DNA of 64,000 nucleotides from Escherichia coli (GCF_045037415.1 NZ_CP173440.1), one strand, 5' to 3'. Positions 18,001 to 24,000 are shown, counted from the stretch's first letter. Numbers: made by a program.

Positions 18001-21000
18001 GATGATGCATCGCATTCAGTATTCCATATAACCGTTTTTTGATGGTTTTCGCTGCGTTTTTCATCATCGGCACATCACATTGAGACGCCAGCGATATCCA
18101 CTGCAACCAGTCATTCCTGCGTTCTGTGCTCCAGGGGCGATCCCAGATATTTTTGGCCAGCTCTTTCAGTGTCCAGCACTGGCTTGTCTGCTGCATCTGT
18201 TCCCGCAGCCACATCAGCTTTTTCTGCCGGGACTCAGTCATCCATTTGTCGCTGTACTGCCACAGGAAGCGGGTACCTTTGGCCTGACGGCGGCTTTCAA
18301 CCGGAAGACGGGGATGTTCATTCTGGCGGGTTTTATCCACCACCTCACCCAGCTGTTTCGCTACGTGGAAGCGGTCAAAGGCGATTTTATCAACTGCACA
18401 CGGTAAGTGGATGCGCGCGGCTCTTATATAGCCCGCATTCATGTCCATTGAGAGCGTTTTAATGGCCTGCAGCTGTCCGTCAGTCAGGGTTCTGAGGTAA
18501 CCGGCAAGACTTTCCTTACCTCGATCATCCGTTAAAGCCAGCGCCCGCCCGTCACGATCGGAGATCACCGTTATATAACGATGTCCTTTTTTAAAAGCGA
18601 CCTCGTCCACATTCATATGCCGGGCTGCTAACGGCTTTTTTATGCGTGCAAGACCTCGTTTAACCGCGCGGGTCATAATGCCGTCAACGGCATTCCAGCT
18701 CAGTTTGAGTTGTTTCCTGACCGCATCAACAGTGCTGATTTTCAGCCATGAAAGCACGAATGATTCGAACAGCAGCGTATACCGGCTGCCGGGCCCCGCC
18801 CACGGAACAGGCAAAGTCTGGCATCCATGCTTCGGACACATAACACGGGGCACACTGGCTTCAACTATCGTGGCGAACTGGCAGGTATCGAGGTGGCGCC
18901 ATTTACGATGCCGGTGATCGTGAACGGGGCAGGATTTCCCGCAGGCTGGACAGGTTAACTGAGTATTTTCAGCGATTCCGACAGTAACGGTAACAGAAGC
19001 GGCATTTTCATCGAGAGAAAGAGACTTTACCTGCCACGGAGCTGACAAGTTGAGGATATGTGCATAGAGGGACTTTTCGTCCATGGTGGTGACCTCTGGC
19101 GATTTAATACGCCATTATCATGCCTTCAGCCACCACAACAAGGGAAGACCCTTATTTATACAGCATTGATATGTAATGACATTTTTTTGTTTACATCCCC
19201 AAAAAACGTTCCTTAGTTACGAAAAATGATTCGCTGACTCTGTAAAATTGTCCTGCCTGTGATTAGCAACGGATTACCGGAGCAAATCTGGTGAGGTTGT
19301 TTAACAAAGTTACTTTTGATTGCGATAAACCTTGCGTCAGTGCTGGAGGTCAGAGTAGGCCAGATGTACGAACGGATGCACAAAGAAAATTGCCTTCGTT
19401 CCACTCTGTCCCTCTCTTCATCTATAGGCTCTTGCTTACACCTAGCGAAACCAATCTCGAACAGGGTTTATCGACAAAAGTAACTTTCCGTCCTGGTTAT
19501 TTACCTGGGCAAAGCGATCTCTTAGAACGAACGAGCGTACAAGCGTTGTCCTGGAACCAGAACCGCACAACGCATAGAACACTTTCCGGCATAAAAGTAA
19601 CTTTCTCAAAGTTGCGTTGTGACCAGAAAGTAAAACCGGAGAGTAGCTTTACGATAATCGACACTTAGCATGCAACATAAGGCCCCGTTGATCTGGGCTC
19701 ACTCGATGGCTTACGAGGTAACAAACATCGCAACTAACGGTAAGTTCGCATCCCTGTAAAAATGCATGGTGATACGTACGACGGTTAATCTTTTCACTTT
19801 TCATAGGATGAGCACAACAGCTATCTAACCATGCCAACCTACTTGAATAGCTATTAAGTTATTGTTTTATAATGTAAAACGCCACTATCTTTCTGGGGTT
19901 ACCCTGATACTGTGAACGTACAACCGTTAATTCTTTCAGATTAAAGTGACAATCTGCGTGCTTTGCACGTCCATAGGAACGTACGACGGTTAATGTTTTG
20001 AGCTGGAGAGGTCGGATGCGAATGACAACATACGACCGTTAATGTTTCTGATTGAACTTGTCTTGAATGAAGTTTATTTGCTGTAATATCAGATAGTTAC
20101 TGTGTTTTCGTGTAGAGAGGCAACAATGGACGTGTAGTTAAAAGTGCAGCAACAGCGATAAAAGTTACTTTTCGATAAGGGGACTATTCTTCCAGAGAGT
20201 CATCCCCCTCTTTTGTACGCCTGATTTCCTGAATTAAAGCTCCTCAAAATCGGCATCTTCGACTTCAGATTCCGGTTTTCCTTCCCTCTGCAACTTATCG
20301 AGGGCATCCAGAACGCCAGCAATCTCAGTTTCTGAGTAACCTGCAGCCTTCAGCATTTTAAGTTTATGTATCAGTGCATCGTCATCAGCTGGGTTATGTG
20401 CAGCCGGGACCAGGATGGTCTTTTTGGCATCCAGCGAGGGACTTCGTTTAAGTATGTGGAACTTTATTGACCGACCAATCTTCTCTTCTCTGTATTGCAA
20501 GTAACCGATTTGCTCAAGCTCCTTCAACGAACGGCGAATGATCATGTTCTGAGAGGCTACTGGGGACGTTAGCCGTAAACGGTCGCGAAAGCGTTTCATT
20601 GAGATTGGTGCGGGGTCTTTAGGTAGGCTGGCGAGGTAGGTATACAAGGCCTGGGCGGACTCTTTCCTTTGCAGGTTATCAAGAGCCTTAAGGCGAAGAT
20701 AAACCTTATAGTCAATCTGATAGAGCTCCTGAATCCGGGGATCTCCCTCTATCTCAATCTCATTGGTTTTTATGTTGTACCGTGCCCAGTTAATGAGGCC
20801 GGTCGTGAGGGTTGAATCTTCATTGCGGAACTGAAAAGTGACCATTTTCAGTTTAATCATCGAAGCATCGATACGTTGTTTCATGGGCTTATTCGACCTC
20901 GAGGGGTCAAACCCACAATTTTTAAGGAAGGTGCTAAAAGGAAGCTTAATCCTTCCTGAGTAATGGCCATGGTCATGTAAAGAACGGACTATACCAAGCC

Positions 21001-24000
21001 ATACACGGAAATCTGTCCCCATATCAAGACGAGGGCTGGATAGCGATATTTCTTTGTAGCCTTCACTGGATGCGATCTGCATATGCTGTAAATCGCGTGA
21101 CACATCCATCGTAACCAAACCCTCTGGGAGGTTTTTCTTTGCTACGCCCGGAGGGGCCGGGACAAATACCCCAAGCCTCAACAAAGCAACAGGTTGAACG
21201 GTACCATTGTTACCAGGGGTAAAGTTAGTAACTTTACCCGTACCCCCTACGACATTGAATGAGAATGCGGCTTGTTCTTTGATTTCATTGTTAATTTTTA
21301 ATGAGATGGTCACTCCCTCCTTCCCGGTACTATGCTGAGGATAGGCTTTCATTCGGAGAACTATCATGGAAAACATTGCGCTCATTGGTATCGATCTGGG
21401 TAAAAACTCTTTCCATATTCATTGCCAAGATCGTCGCGGCAAGGCTGTTTACCGTAAAAAATTTACACGGCCAAAGTTAATCGAATTTTTGGCGACATGC
21501 CCCGCTACAACCATCGCAATGGAAGCCTGTGGTGGCTCTCACTTTATGGCACGCAAGTTGGAAGAGTTGGGGCATTTTCCTAAGCTGATATCACCACAAT
21601 TTGTCCGTCCATTCGTTAAAAGTAACAAAAACGACTTTGTCGACGCCGAAGCTATTTGTGAAGCTGCATCGCGTCCGTCTATGCGTTTTGTACAGCCCAG
21701 AACTGAATCTCAGCAGGCAATGCGTGCGCTGCATCGTGTCCGTGAATCCCTGGTTCAGGATAAGGTAAAAACAACCAATCAGATGCATGCTTTTCTGCTG
21801 GAATTTGGCATCAGCGTTCCACGAGGAGCTGCCGTTATTAGCCGACTGAGTACCCTTCTTGAGGACAATAGTTTGCCTCTATACCTCAGCCAGTTATTGC
21901 TGAAATTACAACAGCATTATCACTATCTTGTTGAGCAGATTAAAGATTTGGAATCCCAGTTGAAACGAAAGTTGGACGAAGATGAGATTGGACAGCGCTT
22001 GCTGAGCATTCCCTGCGTCGGAACACTGACAGCGAGTACTATTTCAACTGAGATTGGCGACGGGAAGCAGTACGCCAGCAGTCGTGACTTTGCGGCGGCA
22101 ACAGGGCTGGTACCCCGACAGTACAGCACGGGAGGTCGGACGACATTGCTGGGAATTAGTAAGCGAGGTAACAAAAAGATCCGAACTTTGTTGGTTCAAT
22201 GTGCCAGGGTATTCATACAAAAACTGGAACACCAGTCTGGCAAATTGGCCGATTGGGTCAGGGATCTACTGTGTAGGAAAAGCAACTTTGTCGTCACTTG
22301 TGCTCTGGCAAACAAGCTGGCCAGAATAGCCTGGGCCCTAACGGCACGACAGCAAACTTATGTAGCATAACGGCAGAAATACACCGGTTTAAAGAATCAC
22401 TGATCTGGTTTTGCGAATACTGATATTGATGATACTAACGGCCCACCGGCCTGTTGAGGAACCTGTAAAACGGAAAGGCTCATTGAAGCCGTATATTTTC
22501 TGGAGGTTCATCAGGCGCGGAACTCATCGAGGCGCGGGAATAAAATCCCATTCAGACGCCGGATAGATTCAAGCAAGCCAATTTATCGTCAAAATCGGTG
22601 TTGCAAAAACGGGAGTGACCATAGATTCCGTTTTGATGCAGACAAAGTCCTGGAGTGTATTCTGGCTGTGCATGCTTCTGGCCATAAGGTTCTGGTCATC
22701 GGACAACCGTCAGACCATGAATTGTGCATTGGTTTACTTTCACGCTTGCCAGTGGGTTATCGTGCTATGTTCGTGAATCTGATGGGCCATCAAGACCTGC
22801 AAGAGATGTCTGGCGATGGCAAGGACAAGGGTAATTCGGAAACAAAAAACCTCCTACATTAGGACATAGGTTAACTGGTACACTTCATCCCTTGAATTAA
22901 CGGAATAACCACAGGTGAGGGCATCTTCTTGGAAAGGAGTCATGATTTGAAATTCAATAACAATCAAAATGAAAAATGTCTCAATAAGGTGTTGAGTTAT
23001 TTTTCAGAAAAAGATACTAACCTTATTGTCGTTATAATAGGGCCTTCCCGGTCAGGGAAAACCCTTCTGGCGAAGCGTGCATTATTTGATGGTTTATTTA
23101 TTTCACCAGATGAGCCGATAGCTGGTGAGAATTTTATTCAGAGTTTATCAAATAAAGATATCATCGTTGATGATGTTGTCCTTTTTGATATGCGGAATGT
23201 GTTGAAATACGTTCTTCATTCACTTGCCTCGGGAAGGAAAGTGATTTTGACCGGGCGTCCGGAAGATGAGTCTTTGTATCAGAAGCTTCTGTTAAATTTG
23301 CCTAAGGAAATTTCACCATTATTTATTAAGCTGGCGGGTGAAAATTCCTTGTATCTGTGAGCAGGGACACTTAACTAATTTGCCATCAAAATGGCATAGC
23401 TTATTTTAGGGGAGGGGGAGCTTTGAATCATCCTGTAGAGTCAGTATATAGCGCTCTGACGAGTATTTTATTGCCCTATATGGGTGAGCCTGTGCCTGTG
23501 CAACGAAATTGCTCATGCTGCGGCAGAGCTCCCTCAGAGTTCGACGGGGTAGGCTTCGAGCTGGTCAACGCCTACAGGGAACGTGTTGTGCATTGCCGCC
23601 CTTGCCAGACATTTTTTGTTTCTGCTCCAGAGCTGATGGGCGTGGAGAACCCCAAAAAACCAACAACCGGCCAGAAATTTGGCATGTGGTCTGGTGTTGG
23701 GGCTGTTATTAACGTTGAAGACAATTCTTCGGTTCTTTTAGCCCCTCAGGGAGTGGTCAATAAACTACCTGAGCATTTTTTCGATCACGTAGAAGTCATC
23801 ACGGCCACCAGCGGTCAGCATCTGGAATACCTGTTTAACACCGAACTGAAATTCCCGCTGATTTATATTCAAAACTTCGGCGTGAAAACCTACGAGCTTG
23901 TTCGCTCACTGCGGGTCAGTCTGAGTGCCGACGCAATTTATACCTGTGCCGATCAACTACTCACCCGGCAGAACGAAGTCCTTTACATGCTGGATTTAAA

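Follow-up and report, generated by a model that had tools for sequence, protein, structure and literature searches.

An IS4321-type element between a rep remnant and a type IV-A CRISPR-Cas locus: probable product of an inversion between two IS copies in an IncHI1B/IncFIB-type plasmid

Does an insertion sequence (IS) whose two flanks can be joined in frame mark the place where a gene was split? The question is posed by a 64,000-nucleotide stretch of Escherichia coli DNA (GCF_045037415.1, NZ_CP173440.1; one strand, counted 5' to 3' from its first letter, the whole stretch being called the window here), in which an IS4321-type element stands between the body of a plasmid replication gene, rep, and a type IV-A-like CRISPR-Cas locus. 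A preliminary description, made from the sequence alone, took the arrangement for a rep gene interrupted by one IS5075-like insertion. From comparison with complete plasmids, we consider it very probable that the window arose by inversion between two IS4321 copies in inverted orientation, following separate insertions in rep and in a second gene, designated g162. The IS in the window is a hybrid copy: the rep insertion contributed its left junction and the g162 insertion its right one, and rep came to lie next to the CRISPR locus through the inversion. The features at issue are as follows.

21299..22625, plus strand: complete IS4321-type (IS1111-family) insertion sequence, 1327 bp (full-length 100% match to plasmid copies; exact excision).
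20234..21298, minus strand: RepB/Rep3-type initiator body, codons 9-362 plus stop, of an auxiliary IncFIB(pNDM-Mar)-type replicon (Rep3_N domain; comparison with intact alleles).
22626..22862, plus strand: 3' remnant of g162, codons 85-162 plus stop of a P-loop gene of 162 amino acids (aa), not part of rep (uninterrupted coding sequence in CP024507.1).
1..21298, no strand assigned: the part held in the window of a ~25.5-kb inverted segment, whose right boundary is the IS (comparison with pEBSI041-1).

The IS does not split a single gene: its left flank belongs to rep and its right flank to g162. In the IS-free plasmid CP024507.1, the window sequence from 22626 onward falls within an intact plus-strand coding sequence of 162 aa, g162, directly upstream of the type IV-A cas genes, and the IS position lies between its codons 84 and 85 (...GAT GAC ATT/TTC CGT TTT GAT..., the slash here and below marking the insertion point). 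For rep, an empty-site query was made from 400 nt of the rep::IS flanks of plasmid pEBSI041-1 (NZ_MW245019.1), after removal of exactly 1327 bp, and was searched in the PLSDB plasmid collection, in which the junction counts given below were also made. The uninterrupted 400-nt rep junction was present in 149 records (3 in two pieces), with 100% identity among the matches listed, and these records annotate a RepB family or replication initiation protein. Intact rep alleles (~146-149 plasmids) start MTVNKKTE/KINNEIKEQ, and the IS cuts rep between codons 8 and 9. In CP154636.1, CP154638.1 and CP154639.1, the rep/oriV junction query is found in two pieces spanning 571-676 bp rather than 400 and is otherwise intact, which suggests that some other small insertion, or a duplication, lies close to the start of rep.

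According to the preliminary description, a single IS5075-like insertion had split a rep gene with its 5' end at 22626-22673 (MHSQNTLQDFVCIKTE), such that removal of the IS would restore both the gene and a single target resembling the inverted repeat (IR) of the Tn21 family. The arithmetic of this proposal is correct. Deletion of 21299-22625 does join MHSQNTLQDFVCIKTE in frame to the K codon of rep, the frame stays open back to an ATG, and AAAACGGAAAA is present in the joined sequence as in the Tn21 IR. As a reconstruction of rep, however, it fails, since 22626-22673 is not rep. The IS-less join exists in no PLSDB record (537 match its right part only, and 0 of these 537 cover at least 80% of it), whereas 149 records have the different uninterrupted junction that reads MTVNKKTE; IS-free plasmids have the sequence from 22626 onward within an intact gene on the plus strand; and the true 5' end of rep adjoins the other IS copy in NZ_CP117741.1. 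Comparison with related plasmids, which the preliminary description had itself proposed as the way to overturn its N-terminus, has thus replaced MHSQNTLQDFVCIKTE by MTVNKKTE. The fragment (MHSQNTLQDFVCIKTE, "MHSQ...") is rejected as a piece of rep, being antisense to the plus-strand 162-aa gene, and the "restored target" GTCTGCATCAAAACGGAA/AAAATTAAC is chimeric, its two parts coming from separate target sites. Moreover, the in-frame join is unremarkable, because a 9-bp shared core (AAA ACG GAA, or K T E) adjoins the IS at both sites; beyond this core, the open frame of the other 13 codons is a matter of chance, near a coin toss. A single insertion into one gene has practically no chance of being the correct account.

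The junctions themselves point to an inversion. The left junction, rep-IS, is found in 67 PLSDB records, and the right junction, IS-g162, in 162 (that is, in 162 of the 537 plasmids holding the 3' part of g162). Both junctions on one IS copy, as in the window, occur in a single record, NZ_CP117741.1, which is near-identical to the window around the locus. This plasmid contains, ~25.4 kb off, another IS copy that is identical and oppositely oriented, flanked by the 5' part of g162 on one side and by the rep 5' end and iterons on the other, which is the exact reciprocal junction. The un-inverted order is seen in pEBSI041-1, where the rep and g162 insertions are both present, in opposite orientation and ~25.5 kb apart. 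There the same rep-IS left junction is followed, to the right of the IS, by ttccgttttcttgttcacagtcat and then by four iterons and a TTATCCACA DnaA box. Aligned to pEBSI041-1, window positions 1-805 match in reverse at 100% and 21297-28796 match forward, and 16900-22634 matches the rep::IS locus; the window follows the order of that plasmid throughout, save that 1-21298 runs the other way relative to the sequence from 22626 on. The g162 insertion is present in pEBSI041-1 and in a second record (L007), and CP034201.2 has both junctions, ~25 kb apart on opposite strands. Hence NZ_CP117741.1 supplies a reciprocal hybrid junction on an oppositely oriented copy and pEBSI041-1 supplies the un-inverted relative, and together with the hybrid rep/g162 flanks of the window they argue that the window is an inversion product.

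The events may be pictured as follows. An IS4321-type element would have inserted separately in the auxiliary repB (codons 8/9) and in g162 (codons 84/85) of an IncHI1B/IncFIB(pNDM-Mar)-type Klebsiella plasmid. The identical, oppositely oriented copies, ~25.5 kb apart, would then have recombined, most likely by RecA-dependent homologous recombination, with inversion of the segment between them. This would leave the rep body to the left of the window IS and the 3' part of g162 to its right; next to the other IS copy would come the rep promoter, codons 1-8 and the iterons of the origin side. In the plasmid studied here, this other boundary, with the reciprocal junction, the rep 5' end, the promoter and the origin-side iterons, would lie ~4.2 kb before the window start.

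Four points weigh against this reconstruction. The reciprocal junction of the window's own replicon falls outside the 64 kb and is deduced from NZ_CP117741.1 and pEBSI041-1; the crossover point is unmappable because the two IS copies are identical; sequence alone cannot tell RecA-dependent from transposase-mediated recombination; and the orientation is set only by a 1.3-kb inverted repeat, a situation in which mis-assembly or a mixed culture can mislead. The last point is the basis of one alternative, in which the true plasmid is un-inverted like pEBSI041-1, or both orientations coexist. The window orientation does hang solely on two identical 1327-bp inverted repeats, and it was found in only one PLSDB record. 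A second IS bears on the same matter. ISCfr12 (ISL3 family; window 17836-19151, with an 8-bp target duplication TTATTTAT) is present at the same site in the un-inverted pEBSI041-1, and the site is empty in the inverted NZ_CP117741.1. The ISCfr12 state is incongruent with the inversion state, and therefore the segment has flipped more than once, or its orientation is unstable; flip-flopping within cultures would fit this incongruence too. However, NZ_CP117741.1 is an independent, complete record, which two IS insertions and a resistance region distinguish from the window, and it has the same hybrid together with the exact reciprocal junction; moreover, inversion between inverted repeats is a routine biological event. 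An assembly artefact or a mixed population is, in our judgment, very unlikely.

The second alternative concerns not the inversion but its catalyst, which would be the IS's own DEDD recombinase, acting with a guide RNA on the IS ends or on the target cores, instead of host homologous recombination. Bridge-RNA recombinases of the IS110 family are described as mediating rearrangements, inversions among them (PMC11208160), and both junctions are precise at the IS ends. Against this, homologous recombination within identical 1327-bp repeats yields the same product without special assumption, and the recombinase route can be called unlikely. Homologous recombination between the two copies is the simpler notion. 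The inversion is a known kind of event, an ordinary rearrangement, and the targeting behaviour of this IS group is already documented.

What is the element that provided the repeats? Its parts are these.

21306..21317, plus strand: left 12-bp subterminal inverted repeat ATGGTCACTCCC, 7 bp inside the IS end.
22611..22622, plus strand: right 12-bp subterminal inverted repeat GGGAGTGACCAT, 3 bp inside the IS end.
21366..22370, plus strand: DEDD transposase gene (tnp), 334 aa (DEDD_Tnp_IS110 and Transposase_20 domains).
22371..22625, plus strand: 3' non-coding region of the IS, 255 nt, downstream of tnp; predicted source of a seekRNA (bridge RNA).

The preliminary description had correctly recognised an IS1111-type element of the IS4321/IS5075 group, with ends at 21299 and 22625, and family domains, exact excision and full-length plasmid matches all agree. 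The transposase matches PF01548 (1.8e-20) and PF02371 (4.5e-20) and carries GLVPRQYSTG, fitting the IS1111-family motif GL-P----(S/T)G, and the non-coding stretches (255 nt downstream of tnp versus 67 nt upstream) fit the IS1111 layout. This motif, a DEDD (RuvC-like) transposase of 330-350 aa with PF02371 at its C-terminus, and a non-coding region downstream of tnp are the criteria for IS1111 (PMC11187229). The 12-bp repeats placed at 21306 and 22611 also stand: ATGGTCACTCCC and its reverse complement have only these two matches in the 64-kb window, where shuffled sequence gives a mean of 0.23 and at least 2 matches in 3 of 100 shuffles. Cutting out exactly 1327 bp leaves two independent empty sites, in rep and in g162, with no target duplication; the ends are ambiguous by one T (TAATGAG...ATAGA or AATGAG...ATAGAT). 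As for the name, 21299-22625 is identical at 100% over its full length to copies in hundreds of Klebsiella plasmids, of which the transposase is labelled "IS110-like element IS4321 family" by the Prokaryotic Genome Annotation Pipeline (PGAP), and more than 5000 PLSDB plasmids have a copy at 90% identity or above. Identity to a PGAP-labelled IS5075 copy in a related plasmid is 93.4% (1240/1327, 87 differences), both labels being those of PGAP and not ISfinder references. In usual ISfinder practice, the same IS name is given at 95% nucleotide identity or above. Thus "IS5075-like" was right as to group and loose as to name, and "IS4321-type" appears the closer name because of the full-length identity to IS4321-labelled copies as against 93.4% to the IS5075-labelled one.

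Why these two genes were entered is suggested by their target sequences, set out here in the orientation of the IS beside that of the usual target.

Tn21-type IR target: GCTTTATT / TTCCGTTTTCTGAGAC.
rep target: TTAATTTT / TTCCGTTTTCTTGTTC.
g162 target: ATGACATT / TTCCGTTTTGATGCAG.

Alignment of the three targets gives a core, TT/TTCCGTTTT, common to all and in the same orientation. Read in the usual IR orientation, 13 contiguous bases are common to rep and the IR (AGAAAACGGAAAA), and 12 for g162 (AAAACGGAAAAT). The target rule for IS4321 and IS5075 was taken from papers that cite Partridge and Hall (2003) and from an IS5075-type copy that occupies the canonical Tn21-family IR CTTAGCGTGCTTTATT/TTCCGTTTTCTGAGACGACCCC in NZ_CP117741.1 (record L004, 9241-10567); related plasmids thus carry IS4321 and IS5075 variants side by side. 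In K. pneumoniae, IS5075 and IS4321 insert in ureC and in other genes resembling the Tn21 IR, and a 13-bp consensus has been proposed (PMC8269217). What is found here is site- and orientation-specific insertion at a core shared with the 38-bp Tn21-family IR, without target duplication. The statement in the preliminary description that this IR is the target of the group is borne out by the shared core, the IS5075 copy and the published work. Its claim that the rep site mimics the Tn21 IR holds insofar as rep is cut at an IR-core-like sequence; the particular GTCT resemblance it pointed to is displaced by 2 nt from the proper register. In rep, two IS variants with 38-41 differences occupy the identical position and orientation, and this speaks either for two or more independent hits or for recombinational replacement. 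A limited literature search found no published description of the repB::IS4321/IS5075 site or of the g162 site, which is weak evidence of novelty. An unoccupied near-target, CTATTTCCGTTTTCTATG, is present at window 11783-11792; it equals the Tn21 IR core TATTTTCCGTTTTCT minus one T and may act as a naturally occurring negative control in work on what IS4321 needs in a target.

How might the core be recognised? The IS1111 family is marked by a seekRNA that derives from the non-coding region, co-purifies with the transposase and is required for transposition. For IS1111 elements, the seekRNA report describes two short stretches within the 3' non-coding region that correspond to the target's top and bottom strands, with the top-strand match lying 5' and the two overlapping at the target (PMC11187229). 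Two candidate segments are seen in the window IS.

22467..22476, plus strand: guide-like segment AAAACGGAAA, complementary to the top strand TTTCCGTTTT (target -1 to +9) in all three targets.
22494..22500, plus strand: guide-like segment TATTTTC, equal to the IR top strand across the insertion point, which would pair with the bottom strand; 3' of AAAACGGAAA.

Across the junction, TATTTTC matches g162 at 6 of 7 bases and rep at one fewer. The order and overlap of the two segments agree with the seekRNA description, and both lie within IS positions 1105-1283, which are invariant among the two IS4321 variants and the IS5075 copy. In the minimum-energy fold of 22440-22545, the segments flank a small hairpin inside an internal loop. 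It is likely, then, that recognition of the TT/TTCCGTTTT core depends on its pairing with a seekRNA that the 3' non-coding region of IS4321 supplies. The statistics temper this assignment. A match of at least 10 nt, as for the 10-mer, arose in 136 of 20000 shuffles (p ~0.007), the 7-mer match in 2580 of 20000 (p ~0.13), and the two together in 12 of 20000; the fold of 22440-22545 is no more stable than shuffled sequence (z = -0.56); an Rfam scan of the IS returned no guide-RNA family, only a chance snoRNA-like match (E = 0.82); and the assignment is without covariation support. We regard it as a reasonable inference rather than a result.

The remaining question is whether the rep body in the window can still drive replication. 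Two further features are needed here.

21299..21385, minus strand: IS-derived 5' extension of the rep open reading frame, 29 codons from the ATG at 21385 (reading of the frame).
19772..20051, no strand assigned: four iterons, consensus ACGTACGACSGTTAAT, on the distal side of rep, beyond the stop codon (repeat search).

The gene product is recognisable as an initiator by its Rep3_N domain (25.1-25.3 bits, cut-off 22.4), with Rep3_C at 17.4, under its cut-off of 21.1. As the preliminary description had noted, 29 IS-derived codons are in frame with the rep body, giving a 383-aa minus-strand reading frame (20234-21385) that continues as KINNEIKEQ.... It had also placed the activity of the replicon in doubt, and that doubt is upheld: the window rep is without codons 1-8, the ribosome-binding site, the promoter and the four origin-side iterons, and no complete, expressible rep beside its origin iterons is found in the window. 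Insertion would have removed codons 1-8, the ribosome-binding site and the promoter from rep, and inversion would then have moved them, with the origin-side iterons, ~25 kb and flipped them. In plasmids of the pNDM-MAR type, repB is the auxiliary IncFIB replicon and repHI1B the principal one (PMC13175049; PMC6657655). Most likely, therefore, the rep body in the window is an unexpressed remnant of an auxiliary replicon, dispensable to the plasmid; it is probably silent because its promoter, its start, its first 8 codons and its origin-side iterons are displaced to the other IS copy. To judge from related plasmids, replication most likely proceeds from a RepHI1B-type replicon outside the window. 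Near the rep-distal iterons, there is in addition a near-palindromic 12-13-nt motif, AAAAGTAACTTTC or AAAGTTACTTTT, in three to four copies (19306-19317, 19476-19488, 19593-19605 and 20160-20172).

Silence is deduced from missing signals, and one pair of signals tells against it: an in-frame GTG (21313-21311) within the IS is preceded by AAGGAGG (21322-21316), with 2 nt spacing, and would give MTISL/KINNE, leaving some expression possible. On this ground one may suppose that an IS-rep fusion is expressed and functional, from the GTG or with the ATG-led 29 codons, and that Rep acts in trans on the displaced origin, keeping the replicon active. The open frame and the Shine-Dalgarno-like sequence ahead of the GTG would allow it; only 8 N-terminal residues are replaced; PGAP annotates such coding sequences as RepB, with starts at the GTG (NZ_CP117741.1) or at an internal ATG in related records; and the rep body is kept without further decay in 67 plasmids. 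On the other hand, a consensus scan of 21150-22800 gave no sigma-70-like promoter directed outward from the IS left end toward rep (none convincing by eye), the ATG at 21385 has no Shine-Dalgarno sequence, the spacing ahead of the GTG is only 2 nt, and after the inversion the native promoter is ~25 kb off and no longer upstream. Furthermore, all such plasmids examined have, or are typed with, another replicon. The undecayed state of rep tells little because the insertions, with their identical IS copies, look recent. One plasmid, pKqq_SB98_1, has IncFIB as its only replicon type and its sole IS copy within rep, yet it contains an intact 299-aa Rep3-type initiator at positions 1-900, and dependence of this plasmid on the interrupted rep was rejected for that reason. 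We consider a functional fusion quite unlikely. A more elaborate version joins it to the inversion: the 25.5-kb IS4321-bounded segment would flip recurrently, and the codon-8/9 site of repB would be a selected landing pad, where the Rep N-terminus is changed from MTVNKKTE to MTISL by the start signal in the IS inverted repeat, with the auxiliary replicon being retuned or switched off. If this were true, the MTISL replacement could alter incompatibility or copy number in plasmids that bear a plasmid-targeting type IV-A CRISPR-Cas system, but we hold the combination to be highly improbable. An unexpressed remnant is the reading that we retain.

On the right flank, g162 gave weak P-loop NTPase matches only. 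The gene (22626-22862; intact copy at 2751-3239 of record L001) and the next reading frame, at 22929-23360 (143 aa), are paralogues with 30% identity (BLASTP 1e-20); each has a GxxGxGK[ST] P-loop, and both are directly upstream of the cas genes. The type IV-A-like CRISPR-Cas locus occupies window 22929-29344 and comprises this small P-loop reading frame, one of 263 aa, a Cas6-like gene, a DinG-type helicase and two further genes, with a CRISPR array at 28463-29344 in which GTATTCCCCCCGTGTGCGGGGGTTATCGG is repeated at least 14 times with a period of 61 bp. Identity between the window and pEBSI041-1 drops from 99.96% to 97.8% starting within the array. Farther right, window 28585-34692 aligns with NZ_CP117741.1, including an annotated group II intron ltrA, umuDC and a Xre/RES toxin-antitoxin pair. 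Over the ~28585-41317 compared, the window does not have the NZ_CP117741.1 resistance region catA1 / IS5075 / blaNDM-5 / qnrS1 / blaCTX-M-15, and the two plasmids are therefore distinct relatives.

The main value of the locus is as an annotation warning and as a source of natural-target data for the IS4321 guide. For annotation, the first lesson is that an IS flanked by an in-frame continuation is no proof of simple insertion. Moreover, the truncated gene is publicly called "RepB family plasmid replication initiator protein" and given starts that lie within the IS, and replicon typing still scores IncFIB for a rep that is cut and, here, separated from its origin. Work on guide RNAs gains a small set of natural sequences that bear on the specificity of the predicted IS4321 guide, namely the three targets and the unoccupied near-target at 11783. 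With 67 interrupted versus ~149 uninterrupted rep junctions, and the IS adjoining g162 in 162 of 537 cases, IS4321/IS5075 thus frequently and repeatedly cause gene loss and large inversions, by off-targeting at IR-like cores, in IncHI1B/IncFIB plasmids, which are clinically important (NDM, hypervirulence).

In its general character, the element agrees with the IS4321/IS5075 group. It is 1327 bp long, its 12-bp subterminal repeats lie 7 and 3 bp inside the ends, it encodes a DEDD transposase of 334 aa, its non-coding region on the 3' side is long, the target is not duplicated, and insertion is in a single fixed orientation and position in the core common to Tn21-family IRs. It differs in that the window copy is in neither a Tn21-type IR nor a single gene, its flanks being two different off-target sites. 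With the seekRNA and bridge RNA systems of IS1111 and IS110, as described in PMC11187229 and PMC11208160, it shares the non-coding region downstream of tnp; unlike those, the IS4321 guide proposed here is a prediction from sequence, with a non-significant folding energy. The closest parallel to the insertions is ureC::IS5075 (PMC8269217), which likewise entered a coding sequence through a short resemblance to the Tn21 IR and recurs at the identical position in many isolates; it was read there as accidental off-targeting with loss of function. In contrast, the targets here are plasmid genes, repB at codons 8/9 and g162 upstream of the type IV-A cas genes. Among iteron-type Rep3/RepB replicons (RepFIB-like; the auxiliary repB of pNDM-MAR), the intact plasmids conform in their Rep3_N (WH1) domain, in four iterons on each side of rep, and in a DnaA box and an AT/GATC-rich stretch on the rep 5' side; the window rep departs from this in being without codons 1-8, the promoter and the origin-side iterons. 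Finally, an IS5075.1-bounded inversion, between IS copies in inverse orientation, has been proposed elsewhere (bioRxiv 10.64898/2026.09.09.750360), and it resembles the present one in having two identical inverted copies, hybrid flanks at both, and an un-inverted relative. The difference is that here both reciprocal junctions and the precursor order are documented base for base in complete plasmids.

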